Assembly: GCA_050010475.1 (NCBI GenBank)
Contig: JBEKKY010000011.1
Coordinates: 1 to 41,000, forward strand
DNA length: 41,000 nucleotides
Direction of reading: 5' to 3'
DNA from: Acidobacteriota bacterium
GTDB lineage: Bacteria > Acidobacteriota > UBA6911
A program made the translations under genes and the position numbers. Positions within the stretch are counted from its first letter, which is position 1; every line of letters begins with the position of its first letter. Positions 136 to 39,800 of the stretch are shown in pieces. The notes below the pieces were generated by a model. It had not been told where the DNA came from and made no database searches. It was given only the letters and a program-made list of their open reading frames with translations.

Positions 136-199
136 AATCGGGGTCGGGGTCGGTATCGGATCAATTCCTTTTCGACCCCGATTCCAATACCGACCCCGA
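136..199. repeat. Imperfect hairpin with hexamer-periodic arms (NNTCGG family, copy 1)
   Basis: Left arm is AATCGG GGTCGG GGTCGG TATCGG A (136-160). Right arm is TCGACC CCGATT CCAATA CCGACC CCGA (172-199). The first 25 nt are identical to the copy starting at 18222. It lies between convergent gene ends. Confidence 0.8.
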
Positions 200-210
200 A
201 AAAATAAAAG

Positions 211-522
211 CTACTTAAGGGATACCACGTGATCCGCGAGTGCCTTTGCCTGATCTTCATTGAGCCCGGTGACAGGATTGTTGTGCGGAAACTTCTTTCC
301 GGCCTCGCCCTTGGTGAGGTATTCAACGATCTTGTCCGCAGTCATCTTGGTGCCCTTGACGGCCGGCATTTTTACTGCGGGCTTGCCCTGTCCTTCATCG
401 CCATGGCAAGCGGCGCACTTAGATTTGAAAAGCGCGGCGCCATCTTCAGCGGCCCACAACGATAACGGGGCTGCAACAAGCATTACCAAAACCATTACAA
501 TACAAACATTCTTCATTGCCAT
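211..522 (-). CDS. Secreted mono-haem class I c-type cytochrome
   Basis: 103-aa ORF with an N-terminal signal peptide (…APLSLWAAE) and a single CAACH haem-binding motif. A downstream Met (KMPAV) is the likely axial ligand. Size is typical of a small soluble cytochrome c. Confidence 0.85.
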   Translation of the reverse strand: MAMKNVCIVMVLVMLVAAPLSLWAAEDGAALFKSKCAACHGDEGQGKPAVKMPAVKGTKMTADKIVEYLTKGEAGKKFPHNNPVTGLNEDQAKALADHVVSLK

Positions 523-722
523 ACTCCTGAAAAGTTATGTAAACGTCAACACGCATAAGAAAAATACTTTATGAATTCCCGGATGACAACAACTTTTCGC
601 AATGACTGCTCTATTTCCTCCCATCGCCTTCTTCCTCCTCTTCGTGCTCCGAACCCCAGTCTGCTGCAAAACCAGCCTCCAAAGCATGCGGCAGAAGAGA
701 TTTCGATAAGGGCTGAAGAGAT

Positions 723-783
723 GCCACGGATTACGCGGATTGTCGCAGATTTGAATCCGTGATCATTCGGCGAATCCGTGGCG
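723..783. repeat. Imperfect hairpin, degenerate CACGGATT-family copy
   Basis: The outer 10 bp are perfect (GCCACGGATT 723-732 / AATCCGTGGC 773-782). The inner arms are degenerate CGGATT-type units, and a T6 run follows. It sits immediately 3' of the aminotransferase stop (799-801, minus strand). Confidence 0.75.
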
Positions 784-798
784 TTTTTTCTTTTGGTC

Positions 799-1980
799 TT
801 ATGCCAGGAGGCCCTGGTGCTTCTGCAGAGCGCGGCCAAAGGCAGGCAGCGATCGTACGATCGTCTCGCGCGGGACCGTAAGCGACAGCCGAATGTAACC
901 GCCGCGCCCGAAACCTCTGCCGGGCACCGCCAGAACCCCTTCTTCCTGGAGAAGCCGCGAAAAAGCAACGTCATCCGAAATGGGGGTTTTGAGGAAAATG
1001 TAAAAAGCACCCTGGGGTTTGCGAACCTCGTAGCCGAGTTCTGCCAAACCGCTGCACATGAGGTCGCGCTTTTCCTGATAGGCAACCAGATCCGTCATTT
1101 CTTCCGGCGCTTCGGCCACCACATGCTGCCAGATTGCAGGTGCGTTGATGTATCCCAGAATGCGGTTCGTGAAATTGCATGCGTTTGACAATGCCTCCGC
1201 ATCGGGAATTCTGGGCGAAATTGCCAGATATCCAATGCGCTCGCCGGCAAGCGCCCATGTCTTTGACCATGAAGTGGTAATGATGCAGTTGGAGATGATG
1301 GAAGCCATTTCCGGGCATTTCGCTCCATCATAAACAATTGACTTATAGGGCTCGTCGCTCAGCACGACAATCCTATGGCCAGCCCGTTGCAGCATCGATT
1401 CCAGATTCCGTAAAACGGATTCCGAATAGATCACGCCGGTTGGATTATTGGGCGAATTAAGGATAATGGCCTTGGTGCGCGGCGTAATCTTCGATTCAAT
1501 CGCGGGCACATTGATCGAAAATTCATCGTCGGTTTCAACGGGGACCATTTGTCCACCGTAATTGGTAATATAAAACTGATAATCGGGGAAGAACGGCATC
1601 AGCACGATGATTTCATCTCCCGGATCAAGGATGGCCTTCAACGCAGCATTCATCGCCCCTGCGCAGCCGACCGTCATCAGTACGTGATTCTCGGTATATT
1701 CGACGCCGGTGTCCCGCCGCAGACGCTGTGCGACCACTTTCCGTGTGGCAGGATATCCGGAATTCGGCATATACCCGTGAGAGCCCGGCGCATTCAGCTC
1801 AGCGAGGCGCCGGAATGTGGCCATTACGCCCGGAGGCGGGTCCTCGGCCGGATTGCCGAGCGAGAAATCGAAAACGTTTTCTGCGCCACGCTCGGCTTTC
1901 AATCGGATGCCTTCTTCAAACATCCTGCGGATCCAGGACGAGCGCTCGAGTTGCTGGGTTATGACATTGGCGACGGTCAT
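799..1980 (-). CDS. PLP-dependent class I/II aminotransferase (AspC/AlaA-like; substrate not assignable)
   Basis: Motifs SPNNPTG and SWSKTWALAGERIGY (PLP-lysine) are present. The ORF track extends to 2046, but those 22 extra codons run through the 2027-2098 hairpin. The ATG at 1978-1980 is preceded by AAGGAG at 6 nt spacing, so I place the start at 1980. Confidence 0.9.
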   Translation of the reverse strand: MTVANVITQQLERSSWIRRMFEEGIRLKAERGAENVFDFSLGNPAEDPPPGVMATFRRLAELNAPGSHGYMPNSGYPATRKVVAQRLRRDTGVEYTENHVLMTVGCAGAMNAALKAILDPGDEIIVLMPFFPDYQFYITNYGGQMVPVETDDEFSINVPAIESKITPRTKAIILNSPNNPTGVIYSESVLRNLESMLQRAGHRIVVLSDEPYKSIVYDGAKCPEMASIISNCIITTSWSKTWALAGERIGYLAISPRIPDAEALSNACNFTNRILGYINAPAIWQHVVAEAPEEMTDLVAYQEKRDLMCSGLAELGYEVRKPQGAFYIFLKTPISDDVAFSRLLQEEGVLAVPGRGFGRGGYIRLSLTVPRETIVRSLPAFGRALQKHQGLLA

Positions 1981-2026
1981 CGGGAACTCCTTTATTTGGG
2001 CGGCCAATTTTATCGCAATAATTCGG

Positions 2027-2098
2027 AAAAACGCCACGGATTTCACGGATTATCACTGATTTAGAATCTGTGGAATCCGTGAAATCCGTGGCGTTTTT
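2027..2098. repeat. Near-perfect ~33-bp hairpin, CACGGATT family, flanked by A5 and T5
   Basis: AAAAACGCCACGGATTTCACGGATTATCACTGATT - TAGA - ATCTGTGGAATCCGTGAAATCCGTGGCGTTTTT. The first 30 nt are identical to 38100-38129. It lies between the divergent starts of the aminotransferase (1980) and cbiM (2151). Confidence 0.9.
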
Positions 2099-2113
2099 GC
2101 TGCTTTTTTGCTG

Positions 2114-2143
2114 CTGTCATTAACGTCCCGATTGGTCTACAAT
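2114..2143 (+). promoter_or_regulatory. Candidate sigma70-type promoter for cbiM (CTGTCA-N18-TACAAT)
   Basis: TACAAT at 2138-2143 ends 7 nt before the cbiM ATG (2151). No Shine-Dalgarno is visible in TCCGCGG, which is compatible with a leaderless transcript. The -35 element is weak (4/6). This rests on motif reading only. Confidence 0.3.
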
Positions 2144-2150
2144 TCCGCGG

Positions 2151-3760: not shown

Positions 3761-3766
3761 AGTGAT

Positions 3767-4525
3767 ATGGCTGACTATGCGGTTCGAATCACTCGGCTGA
3801 GCTACACATACCCCGACGGAACAAAGGCGCTGGAAGGGATCGACCTCGATGTGCGCTGCGGAGAGCGGATCGCGATTGTCGGGCCAAGCGGGGCGGGAAA
3901 ATCCACCTTGCTCCTGCACCTGAACGGCGTCCTGTCCGGAACCGGATCCGTGAAGATCATGGGATCGGATTTGGAACCGTCGAACCTCCAGCGGATCCGG
4001 AAACAGGTGGGACTATTGTTTCAAGATCCCAACGATCAGTTGTTCTGCCCGACGGTTTTCGAGGATGTTGCATTCGGCCCACTGAATCTCGATGTACCGG
4101 CCGTTGAGATTTCCAGTCGAGTTGACAAAGCGCTGCTTGATTCCGGCCTGGATCGATCCTTTCGTTCCCGCTCCTCGCATCATCTGAGCCTGGGGGAGCG
4201 CAGGCGGGTTTCCCTTGCGGCAGTATTGGCGATGGAACCGGCGATTTTGGGAATGGATGAACCGACAAGCAACCTGGACCCCCGAAACCGCCATCATCTG
4301 ATCGAAGTTGTCTCCGGCCTTAGCGCAACCCTGATCATCGCAACCCACGATCTGGAGCTTGTGCTGGATGTCTGCTCGAGAACGGTTCTCATGGATCACG
4401 GCAAAATATGGGCTGATGGTGAAACCCGCTCCATGCTTTCGGATGCCGAGCTGATGGGGAAGCACGGTCTGGAGGTGCCCTTAAGTTTGAGGTCAAAAAA
4501 TTCGAGATTCGAGATTCGAGATTAA
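3767..4525 (+). CDS. cbiO: ECF transporter ATPase CbiO
   Basis: Walker A GPSGAGKST, signature LSLGERRRV and Walker B ILGMDEP are present. The gene directly follows cbiQ. The last 8 codons (NSRFEIRD) and the stop lie inside the left arm of the 4499-4572 hairpin. Confidence 0.9.
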   Translation: MADYAVRITRLSYTYPDGTKALEGIDLDVRCGERIAIVGPSGAGKSTLLLHLNGVLSGTGSVKIMGSDLEPSNLQRIRKQVGLLFQDPNDQLFCPTVFEDVAFGPLNLDVPAVEISSRVDKALLDSGLDRSFRSRSSHHLSLGERRRVSLAAVLAMEPAILGMDEPTSNLDPRNRHHLIEVVSGLSATLIIATHDLELVLDVCSRTVLMDHGKIWADGETRSMLSDAELMGKHGLEVPLSLRSKNSRFEIRD

Positions 4526-4572
4526 CTGCCAATCTGCTGATTTCTCAATCTCGAATTCCGAATCTCGAATCT
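4499..4572. repeat. Hairpin with heptamer-periodic arms (TTCGAGA family, copy 1)
   Basis: Left arm is AATTCGAGATTCGAGATTCGAGATT (4499-4523). Right arm is AATCTCGAATTCCGAATCTCGAATCT (4547-4572). The loop is 23 nt. Confidence 0.85.
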
Positions 4573-4580
4573 TAACGCCT

Positions 4581-5195: not shown

Positions 5196-5247
5196 CCCTG
5201 AGGTTAAAATTCTTTCTGGGGCGTTCTCAAGAGCCGCTGAATAAATA

Positions 5248-5334
5248 CATGTGGGGGCGGCTCTCCAGAGCCGTCCTACCCGGACCATGATAAGACTGAA
5301 AGGCCGGACGGGTCTGGAGACCCGTCCGCACATG
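5248..5334. repeat. GC-rich composite palindrome (two self-complementary modules that also pair with each other)
   Basis: CATGTGGGGGCGGCTCTCCAGAGCCGTCC (5248-5276) pairs with GGACGGGTCTGGAGACCCGTCCGCACATG (5306-5334). Each half also folds on itself: GGCGGCTCT-CC-AGAGCCGTCC and GGACGGGTCT-GG-AGACCCGTCC. Confidence 0.8.
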
Positions 5335-5348
5335 TGGTACGCGGACCT

Positions 5349-6311
5349 ATGAACAAAGTGATTATTACCGCACTGCTCTCGCTCATGATTTGGATGAGTG
5401 CTCCACTTTTCGGCGCCCCGCTCCGGTTCGAGAAAGTGAGCGAGCATTGCTACTATCTGCAGCTCAAGGGAGGAGGGGAAAACGTTTTCGCTGTCGTTAC
5501 GGATGAAGGAATTCTGATTGTAAATCCGCCGTCGGAACCGGATCTGTCGGCTACCGTGGATGCGTTGAGGCGTCTGAGTACCAAAGCCGTACGCTGGGTC
5601 GCATTCTCCGGTCCCCGCGCTGTCCGTTCCGGGGGAGCGCGTTTCTTCTCCGAACAGGGTGCGATGCTTTTGGCCGGCGCCCAGCTCCGCTCCATATCAA
5701 CGTCGATCCCGGGAACCGATGCCAAAGGGCCGGTTGCACCCGGCAACAGTTCCAGCGAACCGCCTTCATTCCCCTGGCTCATTTTCGACCATCAGATGCA
5801 TCTGTTTCCGCAAAACCTGGAGATACGGATAACAGCGCTTCAACACAAAGCGCAAACAGGCGGCGATGTGGTTGTGTACGTTCCTGCCGAGAAGGTCCTT
5901 TTCGTTGGAGGACTCTATGAAGCGGCGCGCTATCCCGACATTGACACCGAGGCAAAAGGAGATGTAGCCGATTGGATCGACGGCCTGAAGCAGGTCGTTG
6001 ATTCCATTCCCGTGCTGAAACCTGCCATCCCGCAAACCAAAGCAGAAAGCAAAACGGCGGCTGAGAAGACATTGGAAGAAGGAATTGCGGTGATATCCGC
6101 GCGCGGCGAAGTCTCGAATTTTCAGAATATGAAAGATCTGCTGAGCGCCTGTCAAAAGCTCCGTGCCGACATCTCGAAATCGATCAAGGCCGGACGCAGC
6201 TGCGAGGATTTTCTGAGTTCATCCCGAACCGATATTTATCGTACCTACTCCAATTTCGACCCCTACGCCGGAAAGTTATGCGAATCCTTATCAGCCGGTG
6301 CTGATAAATAG
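5349..6311 (+). CDS. Secreted metallo-beta-lactamase-fold-like protein lacking the HxHxDH metal ligands
   Basis: A signal peptide follows MNKVIITALLSLMIWMSAPLFGAP. The strand pattern VFAVVTDEGILIVNPP ... VAFSGPRAVRSGGARFF ... GGDVVVYVPAEKVLFVGGLY parallels the MBL fold. The positions expected to hold HxHxDH and the later GD instead read SGPRAV and GG. An alternative GTG start is at 5334. Confidence 0.55.
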   Translation: MNKVIITALLSLMIWMSAPLFGAPLRFEKVSEHCYYLQLKGGGENVFAVVTDEGILIVNPPSEPDLSATVDALRRLSTKAVRWVAFSGPRAVRSGGARFFSEQGAMLLAGAQLRSISTSIPGTDAKGPVAPGNSSSEPPSFPWLIFDHQMHLFPQNLEIRITALQHKAQTGGDVVVYVPAEKVLFVGGLYEAARYPDIDTEAKGDVADWIDGLKQVVDSIPVLKPAIPQTKAESKTAAEKTLEEGIAVISARGEVSNFQNMKDLLSACQKLRADISKSIKAGRSCEDFLSSSRTDIYRTYSNFDPYAGKLCESLSAGADK

Positions 6312-6367
6312 ATTCGAAATTCGAGATTAAATCCCAATTTCGAATCTCGAATTTCGAATCTCGAATC
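6311..6367. repeat. Hairpin with heptamer-periodic arms (TTCGAGA/TTCGAAA family, copy 2)
   Basis: GATTCGAAATTCGAGATT - AAATCCC - AATTTCGAATCTCGAATTTCGAATCTCGAATC. It begins at the last base of the upstream stop codon and ends 8 nt before the xth RBS (GAGGAGG). Confidence 0.85.
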
Positions 6368-6382: not shown

Positions 6383-7132
6383 ATGAAAATCGCGACATGG
6401 AATGTAAATGGAATCCGTGCCCGACAGAGCCAGGTACTTGAATGGATCGGCAGCGATCAACCCGACATAATCTGCCTGCAGGAAATCAAGGCTTCCCGCG
6501 AACAGATTCCCGAATCTCTCTGTGAAATGGCGGGATACTGGTGCTATTGGCATGGGGAGCGTGCATACTCCGGCGTTGGCCTTCATATTCGCCGCGAAAT
6601 CGCCCCGGATCCGCCGCGGTTCGAACACCCCGATTTTGATCACGAGACCCGCATCGTGACTGTGCGCCTCGGGAACATGGTGATCGGTTCCGTTTACGTC
6701 CCAAATGGGGGAAAGGATTTCGCTGCAAAGATGCGGTTTCTCGAAGCCATGGAGGGCTATGCGATCTCTTGCCGCGCCCAGGGGCTCGATCTAATTCTCT
6801 GCGGTGACATGAATGTCACCCGCACCGATCGCGACGTCCATCCCAAAGAACGCAAACCCAACATCATCGGCCAGCGCCCGGATGAGAGGGAGCTGTTCGA
6901 GCGCGTCATCGCGAATGGAGGTATGGTAGACGTGGGGCGAGCCATGGATCCTGACAACGACGAGCTCTTCACGTGGTGGCCTCCCTGGCGCAACATGCGC
7001 CAGAGAAATATCGGATGGCGATTGGACTACATTCTGGCGAGTCAACCGGTGGCGGCGCGGGTAACGCAGTGTATTGTGCTTGCTCAGCTCGGGACCAGCG
7101 ATCATGCTCCCGTCGTCGCAGTGATCCCGTGA
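6383..7132 (+). CDS. xth: Exodeoxyribonuclease III (AP endonuclease)
   Basis: MKIATWNVNGIRAR N-terminus, QEIK, and C-terminal SDHAPV. It is 249 aa, with a strong RBS (AGAGGAGG) upstream. Confidence 0.93.
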   Translation: MKIATWNVNGIRARQSQVLEWIGSDQPDIICLQEIKASREQIPESLCEMAGYWCYWHGERAYSGVGLHIRREIAPDPPRFEHPDFDHETRIVTVRLGNMVIGSVYVPNGGKDFAAKMRFLEAMEGYAISCRAQGLDLILCGDMNVTRTDRDVHPKERKPNIIGQRPDERELFERVIANGGMVDVGRAMDPDNDELFTWWPPWRNMRQRNIGWRLDYILASQPVAARVTQCIVLAQLGTSDHAPVVAVIP

Positions 7133-7215
7133 AAAAAGGGACGCCACCCTATTTCGCCCTATCAGCATCGGTTAAAGGGACTGCAAGCAGGCGAAATAGG
7201 GTGGCGTCCCTTTTT
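7133..7215. terminator. 26-bp perfect inverted repeat, candidate bidirectional terminator between convergent xth and alr
   Basis: AAAAAGGGACGCCACCCTATTTCGCC (7133-7158) is the exact reverse complement of 7190-7215. The loop is 31 nt. A- and T-runs sit at the two outer ends. The right arm contains the alr stop codon (7214-7216). Confidence 0.75.
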
Positions 7216-8353
7216 AGACGTATACGCGGGGCACCCGTGTGTTGATATTGGTCAGGATTTCATAGGGAATCGTTCCGGCCCATTCAGCCAGATCCTCGAC
7301 GGTGATCTTCTCGACACCCGATTCGCCCAACAGGATTACCTCATCTCCGTTATAGGCGGAATCCTGCTCTATATTGACCATCAACTGATCCATGCAGATT
7401 GCGCCGATCTGCCGATATTTGATGCCCCGGATAATAACCTGCGCTTTATTGGACATACTGCGAAAAAAGCCGTCCCCGTAACCGACCGGAACCGTTACGA
7501 CGCGTACGTCGTGGTCGGACCGCCAGGTGGAACCGTAGCTGACTGCATGGCCGGACTTGACCACTTTGAAATAGACAACACGCGATTTCCACGCCAGCGC
7601 CGGTTGAACTTCAATGACACGAGGCGTGGCCGGCGATGGATAAACACCGTACAGCATGATGCCCGGACGCACCATGTCCAGATAGCTTTCCGGGAGTTGG
7701 AGCACTGCTGCCGAATTGGCGATATGGCGCATCGGCATAGGCAGACTGTGGCGTTCGTAAAAGCGCAGCACTTCATGAAAGCGCTCCAGTTGAAGCCGGG
7801 CGTCAGCCAGATCATGGGAATCGGCATTGGCAAAGTGGGAATAGATTCCTTCGACCTCCACATTTGCGCACTTCAGCGCGAACTCCTGAAGAGACTGGGC
7901 GCTGTAATAATGGACGCCAATACGCTCCATGCCTGTATCGATCTTCAGATGAACCTTGGCCTTCACGTTCATCTGACCGGCCGCAGCATTAATCTGCTCC
8001 AACCGTTCCGCCGACGAAGCCGTCAGGGTTAGATCGTGCTCAAGATAACGATGGATCTGCTCGTGCCATATGCCACCGAGAACGATGATCGGGGCCGTAA
8101 TGCCCAATTCGCGCAGGAGGACGCCCTCTTCCAGCACTGCGACGCCGATATAATCCGCCTTCCCGGCCAGGGCCTTCGATACCTCCACCAATCCGTGCCC
8201 ATAGGCATTGGCTTTAACCACCAGCATCACTTTGGCGGGAGCGACTCGACGCCTGATGGCAGCCATGTTGTCTTCCAGGCGCTTCAGGTTCACTTCTACC
8301 CAGGTTGCCCGGACTCCTCCGGCTGTAGCAATTACATCGTGACAGATTTTCAT
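7214..8353 (-). CDS. alr: Alanine racemase
   Basis: 379 aa with the PLP motif VVKANAYGHG and C-terminal domain motifs (VSYG..., PVGYGDG). Confidence 0.93.
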   Translation of the reverse strand: MKICHDVIATAGGVRATWVEVNLKRLEDNMAAIRRRVAPAKVMLVVKANAYGHGLVEVSKALAGKADYIGVAVLEEGVLLRELGITAPIIVLGGIWHEQIHRYLEHDLTLTASSAERLEQINAAAGQMNVKAKVHLKIDTGMERIGVHYYSAQSLQEFALKCANVEVEGIYSHFANADSHDLADARLQLERFHEVLRFYERHSLPMPMRHIANSAAVLQLPESYLDMVRPGIMLYGVYPSPATPRVIEVQPALAWKSRVVYFKVVKSGHAVSYGSTWRSDHDVRVVTVPVGYGDGFFRSMSNKAQVIIRGIKYRQIGAICMDQLMVNIEQDSAYNGDEVILLGESGVEKITVEDLAEWAGTIPYEILTNINTRVPRVYV

Positions 8354-9807: not shown

Positions 9808-9809
9808 TT

Positions 9810-9880
9810 CAATTGACGATTGCCGATTTGAACTGCCGTACGATAATAATACTCATTCTAAAATCGTCAATCGTTAATTG
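9810..9880. repeat. Hairpin with GACGATT/GCCGATT-type arms abutting the dnaB start codon
   Basis: CAATTGACGATTGCCGATTTG (9810-9830) pairs with AAAATCGTCAATCGTTAATTG (9860-9880), about 18 of 21 positions. The loop is 29 nt. The left arm starts 3 nt from the dnaB ATG (9805-9807, minus strand). Confidence 0.75.
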
Positions 9881-10039
9881 AGTCAGAATGTATCCGCCCG
9901 GTTTCAAGCTGGGGAAACAATCGCTGCCAGGAAAACGAGGCCTCAAACCAACTCATTGATAGACCATATTGGAATGGTTTGAATTGGGATAAACTTGGCC
10001 TGACACCCTATTTTCATTATCAGATTTGGAGAAAGGTTC

Positions 10040-10612: not shown

Positions 10613-10879
10613 AACAACCCGCGAACTGAGATTGCCCGTCTGACTTCTATCATTATCAGGTGAGCAGATCGTTCAGCCTGATAAGAAACCCCACAGTTTC
10701 GATATGCACAAGGATGATGAATCCCTTGCGAATACGCGTGCCTAAAGGGGCCGCCGGAATAATCAGCGCGAGAAAAATGATCGGGGAATAGCCTTGTCTG
10801 GCGAGTGCTGGAAGCGCCGTCCCTGTAAACATGAAGGCAAATGGAAGCACACTTCCAGGAGGAGTCGGACGAGACTACC

Positions 10880-10918
10880 GATTGCCGATTGACTCGTTCA
10901 AATCGTCAATCGGCAATC
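10880..10918. terminator. 14-bp perfect hairpin just 3' of rplI
   Basis: GATTGCCGATTGAC (10880-10893) pairs with GTCAATCGGCAATC (10905-10918). The loop is 11 nt. The arms are GCCGATT-type tandem units. There is no clear U-tract on the minus strand. Confidence 0.55.
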
Positions 10919-10930
10919 AGCAATCATCAA

Positions 10931-12688: not shown

Positions 12689-12698
12689 CCTTTTTTAA

Positions 12699-12753
12699 CC
12701 ACGAAACACACGAAATACACGAAAAAGCAAAGTCCCTTTCGCGTGTTTCCTGG
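12699..12753. repeat. Imperfect hairpin (CACGAAA-type units) between rplY and pth
   Basis: CCACGAAACACACGAAA (12699-12715) pairs with TTTCGCGTGTTTCCTGG (12737-12753), 15 of 17 positions. The loop is 21 nt. Confidence 0.7.
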
Positions 12754-12775
12754 CTAAAGTTTTTCATTCCATTCG

Positions 12776-13501: not shown

Positions 13502-13531
13502 GGAGTTTTCGCATCAGCAGGCGAAGACTCC
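13502..13531. repeat. Short hairpin 3' of prs / in the rplY leader
   Basis: GGAGTTTTCGC (13502-13512) pairs with GCGAAGACTCC (13521-13531), 10 of 11 positions. A repeat of the GAAGACTC unit follows at 13539-13546. Confidence 0.55.
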
Positions 13532-14633: not shown

Positions 14634-14702
14634 ATTTACGATTGACGATTTGCGATTGACGATTGTTTCCAATCTAAAATCATCAATCGTAAATCGTAAA
14701 TT
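14634..14702. repeat. Hairpin with ACGATT-type periodic arms between ispE and tRNA-Gln
   Basis: ATTTACGATTGACGATTTGCGATTGACGATTG (14634-14665) pairs with AAATCATCAATCGTAAATCGTAAATT (14677-14702). Pairing is imperfect. Confidence 0.75.
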
Positions 14703-15601: not shown

Positions 15602-15657
15602 ACCTGGGAGCGCGGGCGTCCCGCCCGCATGCGGCCGAGACGGCCGCGCTCCCAGGT
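15602..15657. repeat. GC-rich nested palindrome (outer 12-bp stem enclosing two mini-hairpins)
   Basis: The outer stem is ACCTGGGAGCGC (15602-15613) / GCGCTCCCAGGT (15646-15657). It encloses GGGCG-TCC-CGCCC and GGCCG-AGA-CGGCC around a central GCATGC. It lies between the TPR gene end and the ispE start. Confidence 0.8.
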
Positions 15658-17926: not shown

Positions 17927-18217
17927 ATGAACAAAGCAAGAGTAGCCTGCGTGCTGGTGCTATGCCTGGGCCTGGTATTCAGTTCAGTTTCCGTATTGGC
18001 CCAGAAATCAAGTCACCCTGCGACTGAGAAAATCAACCTGAACTCGGCGACGGCTGAACAATTGCAGTCTCTTCCGGGTATCGGTCCGGCAATTGCAAAG
18101 AGTATCATTGAATACCGCACAAAGACGGGGAAGTTCAACCGCATCGAGGAAATCATCAACGTCAAGGGAGTAGGGGAGAAGAAGTTCCAGAAGATAAAAG
18201 ACCGTCTGGTGCTCTGA
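17927..18217 (+). CDS. comEA: ComEA-family helix-hairpin-helix DNA-binding protein
   Basis: 96 aa with a signal peptide, then INLNSATAEQLQSLPGIGPAIAKSIIEYR...VKGVGEKKFQKIKD, which is tandem HhH motifs typical of ComEA. Confidence 0.85.
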   Translation: MNKARVACVLVLCLGLVFSSVSVLAQKSSHPATEKINLNSATAEQLQSLPGIGPAIAKSIIEYRTKTGKFNRIEEIINVKGVGEKKFQKIKDRLVL

Positions 18218-18221
18218 TAAT

Positions 18222-18304
18222 AATCGGGGTCGGGGTCGGTATCGGAATCGGGGTCGAGACCGGGAAAACCGACCCCGGTTCCGATACCAACCCCGACTCC
18301 GATT
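18222..18304. repeat. ~36-nt-arm hairpin with hexamer-periodic arms (NNTCGG family, copy 2, best preserved)
   Basis: Left arm is AATCGG GGTCGG GGTCGG TATCGG AATCGG GGTCGA (18222-18257). The reverse complement of the right arm (18269-18304) is AATCGG AGTCGG GGTTGG TATCGG AACCGG GGTCGG. The four differences are all transitions. It fills the gap between convergent comEA and truB. Confidence 0.9.
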
Positions 18305-18310
18305 CGTCAT

Positions 18311-19580: not shown

Positions 19581-19589
19581 ATTGGATGC

Positions 19590-19877: not shown

Positions 19878-19883
19878 GTGACA

Positions 19884-19957
19884 AATTACGAATGACGAAT
19901 TACGAATTACGAGTAAACGGTTTTTAATTCGTCATTCGTCATTCGTAATTCGTAATT
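19884..19957. repeat. ~30-nt-arm hairpin with ACGAATT/ACGAATG periodic arms inside the infB-rbfA operon
   Basis: AATTACGAATGACGAATTACGAATTACGAG (19884-19913) pairs with AATTCGTCATTCGTCATTCGTAATTCGTAATT (19926-19957). The right arm includes the infB stop codon. The left arm ends 6 nt from the DUF503 ATG. Confidence 0.88.
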
Positions 19958-22798: not shown

Positions 22799-22876
22799 AA
22801 ATGGGGACGCTCCCCTTTTTCTCTTAATCCCTTGTTCTGCGTTTCCACCAGGAGAAAAAGGGGAGCGTCCCCATTT
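22799..22876. repeat. 25-bp perfect inverted repeat between nusA and infB
   Basis: AAATGGGGACGCTCCCCTTTTTCTC (22799-22823) is the exact reverse complement of 22852-22876. The loop is 28 nt. Each arm also contains a mini-hairpin GGGGA-CGC-TCCCC followed by T5. Confidence 0.9.
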
Positions 22877-24881: not shown

Positions 24882-24907
24882 AAAAAAAGTGGGCACTCGC
24901 CCACTTT
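24882..24907 (-). terminator. Intrinsic-terminator-like hairpin in the rimP-nusA-infB leader (candidate attenuator)
   Basis: The minus strand reads AAAGTGGGC-GAGT-GCCCACTTTTTTTG, a GC-rich stem followed by a T7 run. It lies downstream of the 24928-24956 promoter and 14 nt upstream of the rimP ATG. Confidence 0.6.
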
Positions 24908-24927
24908 GTACAAAAGCAGCAGGTGAA

Positions 24928-24956
24928 AGTATACTCGACAAGGTAATAAATATCAA
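24928..24956 (-). promoter_or_regulatory. Sigma70-type promoter of the rimP operon (TTGATA-N17-TATACT)
   Basis: On the minus strand, TTGATA is at 24956-24951 and TATACT at 24933-24928, with a 17-nt spacer. Both hexamers are close to consensus. Confidence 0.6.
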
Positions 24957-24995
24957 CTCCCTGTCGGAATCCGGCCCAGGTTCAACCAGATTTTC

Positions 24996-25066
24996 AATCG
25001 GGGTCGGTATCGGAATCGGTACCGGGGTCGAAAAGCTCGATACCGATTCCGATACCGACCCCGATT
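24996..25066. repeat. Hairpin with hexamer-periodic arms (NNTCGG family, copy 3)
   Basis: Left arm is AATCGG GGTCGG TATCGG AATCGG TACCGG GGTCGA (24996-25031). The reverse complement of the right arm (25037-25066) is AATCGG GGTCGG TATCGG AATCGG TATCGA. It lies 3' of the DUF4340-like gene and upstream of the rimP promoter. Confidence 0.88.
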
Positions 25067-25099
25067 CTAAATTTTGCTGTGGGGTGCCCAATAACGCAG

Positions 25100-26524
25100 C
25101 TACTTCCCGCTCTTCGCAGGGGTAGCCGGAGTGGGTTCTACCATGTCGGCTTGCCCCTTGTTCAAAGCGTCCAGGCCCTCGGGATCGGCCACTTTGACGG
25201 AGGAATCTCCCTTTGCCTGAGCATAAATGCCGCCCTCTTTAGCCGATCTGCCAAAAGAGCAGTCAGCCAGCACCGTGCTCCCCTGCTTCAGAATCACATG
25301 GATGGCTGGTTTATCAAGTCCGTAGGACGCGAGGGGCGCCGGTTTGTCAATCCATTCTTTGACCGGCTTTTCCATAGCATCCAGGATAGCATTGACCGCA
25401 TCCCATTTTGCTTTGGTGTTCGTACCGGCCACAAACCACTCCCCGGCCGGTTTCGAAAAGCTGAAGCTTCCCTTCTGGTTGGTTATCGCGATGAAATCCA
25501 CGTCCCAGCGCTGAATGGGTGCGAGCGCTTTATCCCGGACGTCGTTGGGAGATTTGAGGAGTTTGTCTACCACGTCTTTTTCTACAAAAAACAAATCGGC
25601 CCTTGATTCGTCTTTTGCCAGGTATAATTCCGATAAGGGATTATCAGGATTCCTTTTGGCCGACCCGCTTTCTCCCTTTTTCCGGAGGTTGGATTTTGCC
25701 GAACCGATGACAAGGTGTTTTAACGCTTTATTCTTGCCATAAGTGAGCCGGACATCGATAGTAGGCTTATCCAAGCCCAGGTTTTGGTAATCCTCAGGAG
25801 GGTCATTGAAAAACTCCTTGATTTTTCCCATGGATAAGGCATTCAGAATTCCCCTTACACCGGGAGAATCCGCGGCTATTCTTTCCTTTCCGGCGATCCA
25901 CCATCGGTCGGTGCTGTCCTTCTCGATATCCAAATCTCCTTTCGAGCTTTTCAGGTTTAGCGACTGAACGTCAGGCTGGTCGAAACTCAGGATTCGTTGG
26001 TTCCGCAGATCGTCCAGCTTCTTGTCGAAGGCGCTTGCAGTGGAGCTGGAAACCAGGAATACCTCTTTTCCCCCCGTGACCGCAGCATAAGCGGAATTGC
26101 CTGTGGGATTGCTATTGCCGAAACCGATTGCGTATTCCTTCCCGGCTTTGGTTTTGAGTCTCAAACTTGATTTGGCCGGACTTAATCCGAACTTGGCTAA
26201 ATCTGTCGCATTCGACTCAAGAACACTCTCACGCCGAATATTGGATGCAGAGTTTGCCAGGCTGTTCAGCTCGTCCGAATCGGCATCCAGCGCCCTTGGA
26301 GATGTAAGTGCCCAATTGTTTTCCCCCTGGCGCACTGCAGTGATGTGCTGGCTGGAAGACAACAGATCGATTTGCCGGATGTCCTTGCCTTCGAGCTTCC
26401 ATACCTGGTTTTCAGCCTCTTTAGCCTTTTCGCGCTGCTCGCCCCCTTTGATTTCATAAAAATATAAGTAGCCGCCGAGCAGCAGGCAAACCACCAGCAA
26501 TACGAGCGTACCCTTAAAACGCAT
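25100..26524 (-). CDS. DUF4340-like membrane-anchored protein (partner of GldG-type ABC accessory proteins)
   Basis: 474 aa with a single N-terminal TM helix (GTLVLLVVCLLLGGYLYF) and a large, mostly beta-looking extracytoplasmic part. Its start abuts the gldG-like stop (TAGATG). The family call rests on architecture and context, not on an alignment. Confidence 0.6.
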   Translation of the reverse strand: MRFKGTLVLLVVCLLLGGYLYFYEIKGGEQREKAKEAENQVWKLEGKDIRQIDLLSSSQHITAVRQGENNWALTSPRALDADSDELNSLANSASNIRRESVLESNATDLAKFGLSPAKSSLRLKTKAGKEYAIGFGNSNPTGNSAYAAVTGGKEVFLVSSSTASAFDKKLDDLRNQRILSFDQPDVQSLNLKSSKGDLDIEKDSTDRWWIAGKERIAADSPGVRGILNALSMGKIKEFFNDPPEDYQNLGLDKPTIDVRLTYGKNKALKHLVIGSAKSNLRKKGESGSAKRNPDNPLSELYLAKDESRADLFFVEKDVVDKLLKSPNDVRDKALAPIQRWDVDFIAITNQKGSFSFSKPAGEWFVAGTNTKAKWDAVNAILDAMEKPVKEWIDKPAPLASYGLDKPAIHVILKQGSTVLADCSFGRSAKEGGIYAQAKGDSSVKVADPEGLDALNKGQADMVEPTPATPAKSGK

Positions 26525-31981: not shown

Positions 31982-32010
31982 TCCGCGGCAGGATCAACTC
32001 CTGCCGCGGA
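31982..32010. terminator. 12-bp perfect hairpin between convergent rpoD and hup
   Basis: TCCGCGGCAGGA - TCAAC - TCCTGCCGCGGA. There are no flanking T-runs. Confidence 0.55.
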
Positions 32011-32420: not shown

Positions 32421-32487
32421 ACGTTTGCGCGTCTACGGGTTCACGTGTTAATGCGTAAACGCGTGAATCCGTAAATGCGTAAACGCT
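32421..32487. repeat. Octamer-periodic tract / imperfect palindrome (ACGC/ACGG + A/T tail units)
   Basis: The minus strand reads TTTACGCA TTTACGGA TTCACGCG TTTACGCA TTAACACG TGAACCCG TAGACGCG. The halves are partly self-complementary, for example TTCACGTGTT / AAACGCGTGAA. It lies in the divergent hup / GH57 control region. Confidence 0.75.
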
Positions 32488-34767: not shown

Positions 34768-34795
34768 TCGCCATAGAACTAATTGACGAGGGAAA

Positions 34796-37058: not shown

Positions 37059-38084
37059 ATGCCTGAATTGCGCCACGATCCCATCCAGAGACGCTGGGTC
37101 ATTATTGCCACTGAACGAGGCCGCCGGCCTGATGATTTTCCCAGGAACGAACCTGAGCCGACAGGCGGCTTTTGTCCTTTCTGCGAAGGAAATGAAAGCA
37201 AAACTCCGCCGGAAATAACCGCAATCAGAAATGGGACCGGAGCCAATCAGCCTGGATGGGAAGTGCGCGTCGTCCCCAACAAGTTCCCGGCCCTTCGGAT
37301 TGAGGGAGGCCTCGATCGCAGGGGAATCGGCGCATATGATCAGATGAACGGAGTCGGGGCTCATGAGGTGATCATTGAGACTCCGAAACACTCTCTCCAA
37401 CTCGCCGATGCGCCGCTCGAACATATTCAAAAAGTGCTGCGGATCTACCGGGAACGCCTCGTCGATCTTCTGCGGGACCAGCGGTTCAAATACGTGCTGA
37501 TCTTCAAAAATCACGGAGCGGCGGCCGGAGCTTCGTTGTCTCATCCGCACACGCAACTGATTGCGACCCCCGTAACGCCGTTGACGATTTCGGAAGAACT
37601 GAATTCCGCGCAGGACCACTATCGCGAAAAGGAACGATGTCTTTTTTGCGATCTGATTGAGCAGGAGCTCGATTCCGGACAGCGGATCGTGATCGCGGGA
37701 GATCAGTTTGTAGCCTTGACTCCTTTTGCCTCCAGGTTCCCGTTCGAGATTTTCATCGCACCTCGAAATCATCATCACAGCTTTGCAGAGATTACCGATA
37801 GCATGCTAAACAGTCTTGCGGCGGTGTTGAAAGAGGTTCTGCTTCGAGTCAAAAAGTGCCTGAAGGACCCGCCTTACAATTTCTTGATTCACACAATTCC
37901 TAACCTGCAAGCCGGGCGTTCGCATGGCGGGCACTGGGAAACGATCGAACAAGATTATCACTGGCACATCGAGTTCATCCCGCGACTGACTCAGGTGGCC
38001 GGTTTCGAGTGGGGAACCGGTTTCTACATCAATCCCACCGCTCCCGAAGAAGCGGCGAAATATCTGCGTGAAACCGAGTTGTAA
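37059..38084 (+). CDS. galT: GalT-family (HIT-like) nucleotidyltransferase, galactose-1-phosphate uridylyltransferase-like
   Basis: N-terminus LRHDPIQRRWVIIATERGRRP, zinc-site CPFCEGNE and active-site SHPHTQLIATP (HPH motif). It is 341 aa. The actual substrate pair is unknown. Confidence 0.8.
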   Translation: MPELRHDPIQRRWVIIATERGRRPDDFPRNEPEPTGGFCPFCEGNESKTPPEITAIRNGTGANQPGWEVRVVPNKFPALRIEGGLDRRGIGAYDQMNGVGAHEVIIETPKHSLQLADAPLEHIQKVLRIYRERLVDLLRDQRFKYVLIFKNHGAAAGASLSHPHTQLIATPVTPLTISEELNSAQDHYREKERCLFCDLIEQELDSGQRIVIAGDQFVALTPFASRFPFEIFIAPRNHHHSFAEITDSMLNSLAAVLKEVLLRVKKCLKDPPYNFLIHTIPNLQAGRSHGGHWETIEQDYHWHIEFIPRLTQVAGFEWGTGFYINPTAPEEAAKYLRETEL

Positions 38085-38097
38085 CAAAATTCAAAAA

Positions 38098-38173
38098 GCA
38101 AAAACGCCACGGATTTCACGGATTATCACGAATTTCAAATCGGTGAAATCCGTGGAATCCGTGGCGTTTTTGC
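38098..38173. repeat. ~36-bp hairpin, CACGGATT family, copy 3
   Basis: GCAAAAACGCCACGGATTTCACGGATTATCACGAATTT (38098-38135) pairs with AAATCGGTGAAATCCGTGGAATCCGTGGCGTTTTTGC (38137-38173). Bases 38100-38129 are identical to 2027-2056. It lies between the galT-like gene and glgA. Confidence 0.9.
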
Positions 38174-38199
38174 TTTTCCCAATACAATGAGGGTGGAAA

Positions 38200-39738
38200 T
38201 TGACTGCAAAAGAACAAGGTACTGAACCGGGTTTGCGAGTTGTAATGTTTGCTGCTGAGGCCGTTCCCTATGCCAAGGTTGGAGGACTCGGAGACGTCCT
38301 CGGCGCTCTCCCGAAGGCAATGGCAAAACTGGGCGTGCAGCCCACTATCATTATCCCTGCATATCGTTCAGTCGATTTCAGCAGGTTTCAAATAAAACCC
38401 TGTGCCGCCGTGTCCGGATTTGATGTCCCCATGGGGTCTTTTCTCGAACATGCCGATGTGTTTCACACGCGGACCAGCGAATCGGCAGCGGAAGTATTTC
38501 TGATCGGGTCGCGGAAATATTTCGATCGAGATGGAATCTACGATAATCCCGCCACCAAGGAGGGATATCTCGACAACATGGAGAGGTTTGTTTTCTTCAT
38601 GAAATCGGGTCTCGAACTGCTTTCACGGCTCGGGCTTCCTGTAGACATTATCCATTGCCATGATTCGCACACCGCGCTCATCCCCGGAATGGTTAGTCTA
38701 AACCGGACGAACAATCCCTTCTTCTCCCGTGTTGGGACGCTCTTCACGATTCACAACCTCGCATACCAGGGGCTCTTTTCAAAAGACTCGCTGGTGTTCG
38801 CCGGAATTGATCTGAGCCGCTTCTACCCCATGTCTCCTTTCGAATATTGGGGCCAGGTCAATTTCATGAAGGCGGGGATTGAACTTGCAGATAAAGTAAA
38901 TACGGTCAGCCATACATATTCCGTTGAGATCCAGACCGACCCCGAATTCGGCATGGGGCTGGAGGGAGTTTTGCGTAACCGGAAGGAAGACCTCAGCGGA
39001 ATTGTCAACGGCATCGATTACGATGAGTGGGATCCCGAAAGGGATCCGCTCATTCCGGCCCACTTCTCTTCATACGACCTCTCCGGCAAAACCAAATGCA
39101 AGGAGTATCTGCTGCATTATTTTGGCTTGCCTCATTCACGGAACCGGATTCCCCTGGTGGGAATCATTTCAAGACTGGCGGACCAGAAAGGATTTGATCT
39201 CATCGCGGAAGCTGTTCGAGACCTCATGGAGCTCAATTTGCAGCTGGTGGTTCTGGGAACCGGACAAAAGAAATATCACGACCTGTTTGAACAGATTGCG
39301 GCCCAGTATCCGGGAAAAGTTGGAGTCCGCTTATCTTTTGACAATGAGCTGGCTCATAAAATCGAGGCGGGCTCCGACCTTTTTTTGATGCCGTCTAAAT
39401 TTGAGCCTTGCGGTCTGAACCAGCTCTACAGCCTGCGGTATGGAACCATCCCGATAGTGAGGGCAACTGGCGGCCTTGCGGATACGGTCCGCGACTATGA
39501 CCAGGACTCAGGTACGGGATTTTGCTTCTCGGGATACACGTCCGGAGAAATGCTGGCGGCGATCAAACGGGCACTGGAAGTCTATTCAGATCCGGGTCAA
39601 TGGCAGGCGCTGATGATTCGCGCCATGTCCCAGGATTGGTCTTGGGACCGGTCCGCGCGCGAATATTTGAACCTCTACCGCACAATTCGAGATTCGAAAA
39701 TCCCGATTAGACCGAGTGGCTCCGCGTCGGGCGCTTGA
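38200..39738 (+). CDS. glgA: Glycogen synthase (GT5)
   Basis: VMFAAEAVPYAKVGGLGDV (KxGGL) and PSKFEPCGLNQLYSLRYGTIPIVRATGGLADTV are present. A TTG start at 38200 is preceded by GAGGG. The C-terminal ~18 residues after ...AREYLNLYRTI run into repeat-derived sequence. Confidence 0.92.
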   Translation: MTAKEQGTEPGLRVVMFAAEAVPYAKVGGLGDVLGALPKAMAKLGVQPTIIIPAYRSVDFSRFQIKPCAAVSGFDVPMGSFLEHADVFHTRTSESAAEVFLIGSRKYFDRDGIYDNPATKEGYLDNMERFVFFMKSGLELLSRLGLPVDIIHCHDSHTALIPGMVSLNRTNNPFFSRVGTLFTIHNLAYQGLFSKDSLVFAGIDLSRFYPMSPFEYWGQVNFMKAGIELADKVNTVSHTYSVEIQTDPEFGMGLEGVLRNRKEDLSGIVNGIDYDEWDPERDPLIPAHFSSYDLSGKTKCKEYLLHYFGLPHSRNRIPLVGIISRLADQKGFDLIAEAVRDLMELNLQLVVLGTGQKKYHDLFEQIAAQYPGKVGVRLSFDNELAHKIEAGSDLFLMPSKFEPCGLNQLYSLRYGTIPIVRATGGLADTVRDYDQDSGTGFCFSGYTSGEMLAAIKRALEVYSDPGQWQALMIRAMSQDWSWDRSAREYLNLYRTIRDSKIPIRPSGSASGA

Positions 39739-39800
39739 AAAATCGGGCTTGGGGCCGAGACAAACGCTTTTCACCCCCGACTCCGATAAATCGGATTTGC
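39739..39800. repeat. Degenerate NNTCGG-type hairpin 3' of glgA
   Basis: AAATCGG GCTTGG GGCCGA (39739-39759) pairs with CCCCCGACTCCGATAAATCGGATTT (39774-39798). Pairing is partial. Confidence 0.5.

Follow-up and report, generated by a model that had tools for sequence, protein, structure and literature searches.

What are the long hairpins that occupy almost every gap between the genes of an Acidobacteriota bacterium, and how did they come to be there? The question is raised by the first 41,000 nucleotides of contig JBEKKY010000011.1 (assembly GCA_050010475.1), the stretch analysed here and called the window below, for which a preliminary description made from the sequence listed 21 such hairpins, most of them with arms that are tandem arrays of 6-9 nt units. 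The window has a GC content of 49-56%, is dense in housekeeping genes and is about 90% coding. We find that the hairpins are real and far above chance, that their families recur at unrelated loci and in unrelated genomes, and that, compared with the neighbouring genes, they arise, are exchanged and vary in unit number much more rapidly. They are of a known kind, that of extragenic palindromic repeats and of elements like the intervening sequences (IVSs) of rRNA; what is new here is the apparent homology of one hairpin family to IVS-type cassettes with a four-helix-bundle gene.

Abundance and periodicity of the hairpins

An ungapped palindrome finder, used at a score of at least 12 and with 40 dinucleotide-preserving shuffles of the window as control, returned 18 hairpins against a shuffle mean of 0.10; at a score of at least 14, there were 15 against 0.00. 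All 18 are intergenic and none lies in coding sequence. They coincide with 18 of the 21 sites listed earlier, the three that escaped the finder being gapped (723-783), short (13502-13531, with a 12-bp stem) or degenerate (39739-39800). The earlier claim that almost every gap holds a long hairpin is borne out, as 18 of the 27 gaps of at least 25 nt contain an ungapped hairpin and 21 do so when gapped ones are counted. A search for inverted repeats gave 29 close pairs, the longest with arms of 42 nt. Across the 21 sites the stems measure 12-37 bp, with RNAfold free energies (dG) of -17 to -70 kcal/mol; the arms of the ungapped hairpins are 12-37 nt long and reach at least 20 nt in 13 of 18. Altogether, hairpins make up about 3.6% of the window and are present in 78% of its gaps, a density of 3.7-4.4 per 10 kb (3.7 at a score of at least 14), compared with about 1 per 10 kb at the latter score, few of them periodic, in some 0.9 Mb of unrelated bacterial loci.

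In most hairpins, Tandem Repeats Finder (TRF) detected arrays of period 6, 7, 8 or 9 in each of the two arms, an arm containing 2-7 copies. When each half-hairpin was tested against its shuffles (p<0.01), at least one arm was periodic in 12 of the 21 and both arms in nine; the number with significantly periodic arms is 12-14, the hairpins at 723 and 9809 being borderline. Seven (at 5247, 7133, 13502, 15602, 22799, 31982 and 39739) have no periodicity, and it is with this proviso that the periodicity described earlier for most arms is confirmed. The accompanying idea that all units vary a single theme, a CG dinucleotide with an A/T-rich tail, stands in part: it fits the periodic units of the window and the arrays around four-helix-bundle genes described below (NNTCGG, CTCGTA, YACGAY), but not the CG-less units CAGATTC, GGTTACA and CAGCYRW that relatives carry at orthologous sites.

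Thirteen hairpins lie in co-directional gaps and five in convergent ones, and three of the five divergent gaps are occupied, in agreement with the mixture of contexts first reported. In 18 of 21 cases the hairpin lies 0-55 nt 3' of a stop codon (one at 101 nt). Several are found within rimP-nusA-infB-DUF503-rbfA-truB, and the hairpins between nusA and infB, infB and DUF503, L25 and pth, and galT and glgA show that they are not restricted to the ends of transcription units. A sense-strand U-tract (at least 5 T within 8 nt downstream) accompanies only 1 of the 13 co-directional hairpins. A T-run ends or directly follows the stem in about five (723, 2027, 7133, 22799 and 38094), and in 2027, 7133 and 38094 it is paired with a matching A-run. 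Consensus terminator-like sites in the window are about as numerous as in shuffles (26 vs 25.2 and 31 vs 24.8). The remark that many hairpins lack a U-tract was therefore correct, and so was the judgement that a terminator role does not account for all of them, given the few U-tracts, the operon-internal and divergent sites and the shuffle-level count of canonical sites.

Replacement at orthologous gaps

Six syntenic relatives, with NusA 88-95% identical to that of the window, were compared over 21 kb each (L124, L125, L126, L247, L248 and L249; L-numbers are labels of the contigs or loci compared); one of the relatives is GCA_035506515.1, 'Acidobacteriota bacterium SMAG_U14907'. Over these short evolutionary distances, hairpins are replaced wholesale at orthologous gaps: the same gaps retain a hairpin, another sequence and another type of unit take the place of the old, and the flanking stops and promoters remain fixed. 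In the gap 3' of truB, which lies between convergent stops, the seven genomes carry six different kinds of hairpin, made of NNTCGG hexamers in the window, CACGAAAYA 9-mers in L124, CACGGATT-type units in L126, TATCGG/TATCGC hexamers in L247 and L248, CAGATTC heptamers in L249 and, in L125, CAGCYRW heptamers that apparently grow from CAGCTGA at the truB stop. L248 and L249 are 95-96% identical over 21 kb, and their truB and DUF4340 gaps are unalignable. The gap 3' of infB holds a heptamer hairpin in every genome, with either ACGAATK or GACGATT as the unit; here the order of the unit variants is reshuffled between genomes, and the arms are still largely complementary.

The DUF503-rbfA spacer is 8-9 nt long in the window (19581-19589) and in four of the relatives, and only L248 (14795-14932) and L249 (14830-14962) carry an insertion of about 160 nt, which consists of a GGTTRCA-unit hairpin and about 50 nt more. 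In the TPR-ispE gap the GC-rich palindrome of the window (15602-15657) is flanked by relics of a GACGATT hairpin that is seen in L124; L126 has no such gap at all. Where the window and L124 have homologous GACGATT hairpins between ispE and tRNA-Gln, L126 has GCGGAT units. The promoter of the rimP-nusA-infB operon (TTGATA-17-TATACT, 24956-24886 on the minus strand) and the leader hairpin behind it, AAAGTGGGCGAGTGCCCAC followed by T7, which has the classical shape of an attenuator or terminator, are nearly invariant in all six relatives, and the hairpin just upstream has been replaced. Even between strains the change is visible: with only 0.3% of sites differing overall, the 71-nt hairpin at 24996 shows 2 substitutions against 0.24 expected. 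Contigs 99.7-99.9% identical to the window in DNA that encode an identical NusA are found in two Logan runs and one Joint Genome Institute (JGI) metagenome, and L001, L002 and L003 are short-read contigs of the window's strain. Where NusA homologues have a named source, it is given as Acidobacteria or Acidobacteriota.

Two hairpins behave differently. The one at 31982-32010 is conserved in all relatives, with L126 keeping the pairing by a compensated change, and that at 22799-22876 is conserved only in L124 and L125, with one compensatory pair change in L124. Both may be ordinary functional stems, and perhaps the hairpin at 7133 as well.

Recurrence at unrelated loci

The families are dispersed already within the window, where each has 2-4 copies in 41 kb. 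Over 84 nt, loop included, the hairpins 2027-2098 and 38094-38177 show about 86% identity. The NNTCGG hexamer family has 3-4 copies (136, 18222, 24996 and the degenerate 39739), and the first three have common strings, such as TCGGGGTCGGTATCGGA, in which the order of the units is heterogeneous; independent slippage would not recreate such an order. The 20-mer GGGGTCGGTATCGGAATCGG of this family matched at least 120 metagenome contigs with a GC content of 40-70% and unrelated flanks. Among the matches listed, the samples are of peat, sediment, soda-lake and bioreactor origin; the hexamer hairpin stands alone or is nested in the loop of another hairpin (L137, L229, L169/L238), the arrays vary in length by 6, 12 or 18 nt, i.e. 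by whole units, and 84 of 124 arrays end in NNTCGA. A further setting of the hexamer hairpin is an element of about 130 nt that is bounded by terminal inverted repeats (GCAATTCTCATTATGAGG...) and recurs, in unrelated surroundings, in at least 14 contigs.

One genome per species was scanned with a pattern of two adjacent units, CACGGATTN{0,2}CACGGATT, for which about 800 chance matches are expected. Most of the 120 loci listed are uninformative singletons, and about a dozen are true hairpins with taxon labels. These GCCACGGATT...AATCCGTGGC hairpins are in metagenome-assembled genomes (MAGs) of Acidobacteriaceae, Sulfotelmatobacter, Ignavibacteriales, Akkermansiaceae, Thermodesulfobacteriota, Anaerolineales, Bacteroides, Prevotellaceae, Phenylobacterium and a deltaproteobacterium, and the matches listed are skewed strongly to Acidobacteriota, Chloroflexota, the Planctomycetes-Verrucomicrobia-Chlamydiae (PVC) group and Bacteroidota. 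In the deltaproteobacterial MAG (L027, 1000-1800), six GCCACGGATG...AATCCGTGGC hairpin elements stand in tandem about 131 nt apart. The arrangement resembles a cluster of the kind formed by bacterial interspersed mosaic elements (BIMEs), and the unit doublet of the L027 hairpin is also part of a 123-nt tandem repeat in L065.

Neither the hexamer hairpin nor the four-helix-bundle protein introduced below had a match in a plasmid collection. Viral contigs gave one match for the 20-mer and none for the protein; with this search nearly empty, phages are not an obvious vector.

A four-helix-bundle gene between hexamer arrays

In several of the contigs that carry the 20-mer, the left hexamer array runs straight into ...GGGGTCGAaaaggag...ATG and then into an open reading frame (ORF) reading MGFGHEKLDVYR... 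This ORF of about 120 aa matches PF05635 (23S rRNA-intervening sequence protein, E = 2.8e-19) and TIGR02436 (E = 1.1e-17), a four-helix-bundle family, and at its 3' end comes an inverted array, part of which is translated into a DPDSDPD tail. These loci can be arranged in a series, from an intact cassette in L159 through a frameshifted one in L217 and internally deleted ones in L148, where two tandem copies retain only 96-125 nt between their arms, to the short hairpins of L241 and L153 and the copies of the window. In L156 two complete hexamer hairpins, with mutually homologous 48-nt loops, enclose the gene.

The hexamer copies of the window keep the left arm of the cassette, AATCGGGGTCGG(GGTCGG)TATCGGAATCGGGGTCGA. 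The arms of 18222-18304 and 24996-25066 are near-identical to those of L148, L217 and L159, and 136-199, read on the minus strand, has 'aaaggaattgat' where L148 has 'aaaggagatcggg ATG'. The NNTCGG family as a whole (136, 18222, 24996 and the degenerate 39739) has the cassette arms together with the inner junction (…GGGGTCGA-aaagg…). No PF05635/TIGR02436 ORF lies between the window arms, and the window copies are therefore ORF-less. To judge from these sequences, the hairpins at 136, 18222 and 24996 appear to be members of a family that crosses lineages and has a 23S-IVS-type gene in its full-length form, a relationship that the preliminary description had missed, and at least one hairpin family of the window has common ancestry with a gene-carrying cassette.

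The protein is widespread. About 8000 proteins came out of a search for homologues; the best 120 of these are 83-100% identical and mostly on contigs shorter than 3 kb, and where their sources are named, these are MAGs of Lentisphaerae, Kiritimatiellia and Verrucomicrobiota. Of 20 sequences read from the best 120, 17 have (D-P/T/S/A)n tails at their ends, and in three mis-called N-termini the 5' array is seen in translation, as IGVGIGIGVEK or a similar string. Searched exhaustively, the cluster representatives yielded 4101 PF05635-type clusters (50% identity) at E<=0.001. Diverged members have other dipeptide-repeat tails (EYEYEYE, DYDNDYD, DFDFDFD, EHEHEHE), all of the form Asp-X or Glu-X. 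Around the gene of L250 the arrays are (CTCGTA)n...(GAGTAC)n, again with the TCGAAAGG-ATG junction, and around that of L252 they are (YACGAY)n...(RTCGTR)n. Together with the hexamer loci, these two therefore indicate that inverted arrays of short CG-containing units around the four-helix-bundle gene are general in this part of the family, and the type of the flanking unit changes with the lineage of the gene.

Comparison with known elements

Among described objects, the intervening sequences of rRNA come nearest. In an IVS, terminal inverted repeats pair into a stem (28 bp in Coxiella), within which there is sometimes an S23p ORF of the PF05635 family; the IVS takes the place of the tetraloop of 23S helices 9, 25 or 45 and is cut out by RNase III. 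IVSs are found in Leptospira, Coxiella and Brucella, ORF-less versions exist, and the sporadic distribution suggests horizontal transfer, the origin and the mobility mechanism being unknown (PMC4990558). The full-length relatives of the window's hexamer hairpins have this stem-ORF-stem layout, and 18222-18304 and 24996-25066, with arms of 35 and 29 nt, have a terminal-inverted-repeat stem of at least 20 bp. The window elements differ in that they lie in gaps between protein genes instead of in the three 23S helices, have arms that are tandem arrays of short units and contain no ORF; cleavage by RNase III is documented for the IVSs. No rRNA was found in the window or in ten loci scanned; the elements are placed between protein genes or within the loops of other intergenic hairpins. 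A reading of the window hairpins as IVSs of rRNA was dropped, since no rRNA is present.

Repetitive extragenic palindromic (REP) sequences are defined by an unpaired GTAG or CGTC at one end, a stem of 5-13 bp and a loop of 2-20 nt (PMC3733652). Like REPs, BIMEs and the REP doublets that form hairpins (REPINs), the window hairpins are multi-copy extragenic palindromes located mostly downstream of genes and often inside operons, their family composition differs between close relatives, and clusters occur (L027); mRNA stabilisation or termination are the roles proposed for the known elements. The stems in the window are far longer (12-37 bp), the arms are periodic and the occupancy, at about 78% of gaps, is far higher. 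The GTAG/CGTC tag lies within 8 nt of an end in 4 of the 21 hairpins, which is the chance level, and its position is inconsistent. No Y1 transposase of the REP-associated tyrosine transposase (RAYT) or IS200-IS605 type was found among the genes of the 41-kb window. Membership in the REP family was rejected on account of the absent tag and the overlong stems. The earlier suggestion of REP-like mobile elements accordingly survives in its general sense, supported by dispersal, by full turnover at orthologous sites and by nesting, and fails as regards the defining REP features of tag and short stem. Miniature inverted-repeat transposable elements (MITEs) are recognised by a target-site duplication, and neither the borders of the window hairpins, which have no direct repeats, nor those of the insertion in L248 and L249 show one.

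Long simple sequence repeats (LSSRs) have units of 5-11 nt and include the heptamers of the cyanobacterial short tandemly repeated repetitive (STRR) sequences (Mrazek 2007, as cited in PMC4679880). TAACTGA repeats occur in Beggiatoaceae, Cyanobacteria and Bacteroidetes with no known transfer mechanism; such arrays are direct and usually lie upstream of start codons, and only one 'indirect' TAACTGA repeat has been reported (PMC4679880, PMC4060949). The likeness lies in the intergenic tandem units of 6-9 nt, the prominence of heptamers, the same unit in distant phyla and the presumed slippage. In the window, however, the array is paired with an inverted copy into a hairpin, and inverted pairs are not described for LSSRs as these sources present them.

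With intrinsic or bidirectional terminators, the hairpins have in common a stem-loop right after the stop codon and, in a few (2027, 7133, 38094 and 22799), A- and/or T-runs at the outer ends of the stem. Their stems are nevertheless 2-4 times longer, 12 of the 13 co-directional hairpins have no U-tract, and there are operon-internal and divergent sites. Two other readings were set aside: a CRISPR array, for want of spacer-type regular spacing, and a riboswitch, for want of an Rfam match. Rfam, searched at the gathering threshold and at E<=1, gave on the hairpins only sub-threshold, generic matches of the miRNA-precursor type and otherwise tRNA-Gln. A literature search with the exact unit-array sequences found nothing, and no description of repeat-armed hairpins at gene ends or of arrays around PF05635 genes was found in a search that was incomplete and yields absence of evidence only. 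Within these bounds, the statement that the hairpins match no named element holds.

Proposed origin and alternative explanations

We propose, at somewhat better than even chances, that the hairpins are a dense and diverse population of extragenic palindromic elements, similar to REPs, MITEs and IVSs, that occupies almost every gap. They behave as selfish or semi-selfish palindromic repeats that tolerate or prefer gene ends and the tips of hairpins. Each element would be built as (unit)n-loop-(reverse-complement unit)n, and the NNTCGG copies of the window would be ORF-less members of the four-helix-bundle cassette class, either internally deleted or non-autonomous. The periodic arms could arise by slipped-strand gain and loss of units, their complementarity being maintained by selection on pairing or by correction in a folded intermediate. 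Read-through transcription by the host would turn stems of 25-36 bp into double-stranded RNA and, by analogy with IVSs and REPs, these stems may serve as RNase III processing sites and as 3'-end protection, thereby segmenting and stabilising operon transcripts. Once cutting or stalling had occurred, the upstream message would have its 3' end shielded by the stem, which would not act as a classical hairpin-plus-U-tract terminator. Because most copies lie 0-20 nt from a stop codon in transcribed operons and have near-perfect stems of 25-36 bp, the RNA would be a substrate for RNase III, and the stem lengths are compatible with excision by this enzyme; the RNA role is probably that of an RNase III site or a 3'-end structure. 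The intercistronic RNase III sites of phage T7 and the 3' inverted repeats of chloroplasts are likewise long stems that are cut or stabilise 3' ends, yielding separate stable mRNAs. The analogy is functional only, as they have no sequence relationship to the window hairpins.

A wider proposal, which we put forward tentatively and hold to be doubtful, is that the hairpins are the ORF-less majority of a cross-lineage class of palindromic cassettes whose autonomous form encodes the 'IVS protein'. The IVSs of 23S rRNA would then be only the rRNA-resident members of a general element that inserts into or extends hairpin tips and gene-end stems, is carried along by read-through transcription of the host and is excised by RNase III, and the pentameric protein would recognise the arrays of short units and help to maintain or spread them.

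Several observations weigh against the proposal of mobile extragenic elements. The analysis found neither a target-site duplication nor a transposase or any other mechanism of mobility, and no four-helix-bundle gene is present in the window or in the 21-kb loci of the six relatives. The link to the gene is direct only for the hexamer family, and extends to the 7-9 nt families only by analogy; moreover, the loci that show it were ascertained with a 20-mer of the hexamers themselves. The variety of unit types and the truB hairpin of L125, which looks locally seeded in its CAGCTGA stop context, argue that some hairpins arise in place and not by insertion. Some non-periodic hairpins (31982 and 22799) are conserved with compensation and may simply be functional terminators. 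As for the RNA role, the sense strand folds better than the antisense strand in 8 cases, worse in 3 and equally in 2, which is a weak test; G:T and A:C mismatches, at 17:9, lean to the sense strand without being significant; and the hairpins in three of the five divergent gaps may be untranscribed.

These observations bring us to the main rival, namely that the hairpins are the ordinary terminators or attenuators of the lineage, evolved in place with long stems and without mobility, and that the periodicity is a neutral by-product of slippage under selection for pairing. We consider this unlikely as a general account. It would explain why 18 of 21 hairpins follow closely on a stop codon and why the same gaps keep a hairpin in the relatives, and it draws further support from the five hairpins with A/T-tract-capped stems like those of bidirectional terminators, from the compensated changes at 31982 and 22799, from the L125 truB hairpin and from the slightly better folding of the sense strand. 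A sense-strand U-tract in only 1 of 13 hairpins is difficult to reconcile with it, and so are the hairpins inside the conserved nusA-infB-DUF503 operon and in three of five divergent gaps. The same heterogeneous unit orders recur over 17-30 nt at unrelated loci and in at least 120 unrelated metagenome contigs, which independent slippage would not produce; hairpins are nested inside other hairpins, and arrays flank a gene. In addition, the window contains a canonical short attenuator, so that the RNA polymerase does not need long stems. In-place origin and the spread of elements may both operate.

A role at the DNA level seems improbable. Here the unit would be the binding site of a multimeric protein, such as a nucleoid protein, gyrase, integration host factor (IHF) as at BIMEs or the pentameric four-helix-bundle protein, or else the hairpins would form cruciforms that organise supercoiling domains. 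The regular period of 6-9 nt with usually one CG per unit would suit such a protein, as would the hairpins in divergent, possibly untranscribed gaps and a mismatch asymmetry that does not clearly favour the RNA sense strand, and the hexamer arrays are linked to the gene of a nucleic-acid-binding pentamer family (Avd/S23p; PMC4990558, PMC10053308). A single sequence-specific binder is nevertheless hard to reconcile with units whose sequence and period differ between neighbours and between orthologous sites; seven hairpins have no periodicity at all, and there is no candidate gene for the binding protein in the window. We give practically no credence to an artefact of assembly or scaffolding, i.e. 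fold-back chimeras of metagenome assembly. It is true that the short-read contigs L001, L002 and L003 end inside hairpins (at window positions 22805, 25052 and 19929, within 22799-22876, 24996-25066 and 19884-19957, respectively) and that, among the matches listed, 23 hexamer 20-mers lie within 150 nt of a locus end where 11.8 are expected. Real inverted repeats, however, make contigs end in de Bruijn assemblers. The hairpins are also spanned intact by independent contigs at 99.7-99.9% identity, 24996-25066 by L001 and 22799-22876 by L003, and the same kind of hairpin is found in long-read assemblies of the relatives and in a closed 6.9-Mb genome.

Implications

One kind of structural element is present in 78% of the gaps and is undescribed in Rfam or in the literature searched. 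Annotation pipelines would ignore it or call spurious ORFs across it (18008-18310 and 24889-25125), and its breaking of short-read assemblies helps to explain why MAGs of Acidobacteriota and of the PVC superphylum are fragmented. Evolving far faster than the surrounding genes, the hairpins offer strain markers and a natural system for studying the growth of palindromes and microsatellites. The tie to the four-helix-bundle gene connects three subjects that are poorly understood: the IVSs of rRNA, the very large PF05635 family, which includes the accessory protein Avd of diversity-generating retroelements (DGRs), and intergenic short-unit repeats found in distant phyla. Should the stems prove to be RNase III sites, the operon transcripts of these bacteria would be cut routinely gene by gene, which would change how their transcriptomes are read. 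If the wider proposal of a cross-lineage cassette class were true, it would give a testable answer to the 35-year-old question of the origin of IVSs and a function to 4101 PF05635-type clusters without a known role.

Catalogue and further observations

The hairpins and the related loci are collected in Table 1. The genes identified in the window are those for a cytochrome c and an aminotransferase, cbiMNQO, alr, dnaB, rplI, rpsF, pth, L25, prs, tRNA-Gln, ispE, a TPR protein, a comEA-like gene, truB, rbfA, DUF503, infB, nusA, rimP, a gldG-type ABC system, rpoD, HU and a GH57-glgP-galT-glgA cluster.

Table 1 Hairpins of the window, with related loci elsewhere (last two rows)
Feature	Position	Strand	Context and remarks
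NNTCGG hexamer hairpin	136-199	-	Reverse complement reads ...GGAATCGGGGTCGA-aaaggaattgat-CCGATACCGACC...; 11 nt 3' of cytochrome c stop
Gapped CACGGATT-type hairpin	723-783		Ends GCCACGG...CCGTGGC; 15 nt 3' of aminotransferase stop; z = -4.7
CACGGATT(T) 9-mer hairpin	2027-2098		25-bp perfect outer stem capped A5/T5; divergent aminotransferase/cbiM gap
TTCGAGA heptamer hairpin	4497-4573	+	cbiO stop codon (4523-4525) inside left arm
Non-periodic GC-rich 30-bp hairpin	5247-5335	+	Adjoins start of next ORF
TTCGA(G/A)A heptamer hairpin	6310-6367	+	Begins at stop codon of ORF 5334-6311
Non-periodic 26-31 bp hairpin (AAAAAGGGACGCC...GGCGTCCCTTTTT)	7128-7220		Fills convergent EEP-family gene/alr gap; looks like a bidirectional terminator
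GACGATT/GCCGATT heptamer hairpin	9809-9881		Divergent dnaB/PEMT gap, 2 nt from dnaB start
GCCGATT heptamer hairpin	10873-10925		Convergent gap, 5 nt 3' of rplI stop
CACGAAAYA 9-mer hairpin	12694-12758	-	Between L25 and pth; RNA fold -29.6 (sense) vs -17.9 kcal/mol (antisense)
Short non-periodic 12-bp hairpin	13502-13531	-	Between prs and L25; kept in L125
GACGATT heptamer hairpin	14634-14702	-	Between ispE and tRNA-Gln; homologous in L124
GC-rich non-periodic palindrome (CCTGGGAGCGC...GCGCTCCCAGG)	15602-15657	-	TPR-ispE gap
NNTCGG hexamer hairpin, 35-bp arms	18222-18304		Fills convergent gap between comEA-like gene (17927-18217, +) and truB (stop 18311)
ACGAATT/ACGAATG heptamer hairpin	19881-19957	-	Fills 78-nt infB-DUF503 gap
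Non-periodic 25-bp perfect hairpin	22799-22876	-	GGGGACGCTCCCC + T5 in each arm; between nusA and infB
NNTCGG hexamer hairpin	24983-25079 (core 24996-25066)		Core with 29-nt arms, loop GGGGTCGAAAAGCTCGA; 3' of DUF4340 gene, upstream of rimP promoter
Short GC-rich 12-bp hairpin	31982-32010		Between convergent rpoD and HU
8-mer hairpin (ACGCRTTT / CACGNGTT)	32421-32487		Divergent HU/GH57 gap; related hairpin in L124, none in L126
CACGGATT(T) 9-mer hairpin, 31-bp arms	38094-38177	+	Between galT and glgA; sister copy of 2027-2098
Degenerate hexamer-family hairpin	39739-39800		Directly 3' of glgA stop; weakest of the 21 sites, z = -1.6
Four-helix-bundle loci	L159 541-1125; L217 1180-1700; L148 1385-1800; L156 1-900; L250 1580-2050; L252		
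Element of about 130 nt with terminal inverted repeats GCAATTCTCATTATGAGGCGATTGGGTCA.../...GATGGTCCCATCTCCAAAATGAGAATTGC	L131, L141, L180, L182, L201, L206, L223, L228, L236, others		GC 51-69%

Some hairpins touch the reading frames beside them. At 4497-4525 the heptamer array in the left arm of a hairpin supplies the final codons of cbiO (...K F E I R D S R L stop); the C-terminus of this protein has therefore been formed, or replaced, by the repeat. The start codons of dnaB and DUF503 stand 2-3 nt from the ends of the stable hairpins 9809-9881 and 19881-19957, and nothing resembling a Shine-Dalgarno sequence lies in between. Two ORFs called mechanically, 18008-18310 (minus strand, 100 aa) and 24889-25125 (plus strand, 78 aa), cross hairpins and have no Pfam match.

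In an 8-kb locus that also carries a hexamer hairpin (L153), three Acido-Lenti-1 RNA motifs (RF01687) lie at 1307-1352, 6550-6596 and 8103-8148; considered as a related element, this RNA was set aside as an unrelated motif. The GC-rich non-periodic palindrome of 15602-15657 belongs to a family (CCTGGGAGCGCCGGCGTCCCGCC / GGCGAGACGCCGGCGCTCCCAGG) that occupies a different gap in L247 (9221-9494), L248 (9138-9494) and L249 (9101-9494), and in the last two genomes several copies share one gap of 350-390 nt.

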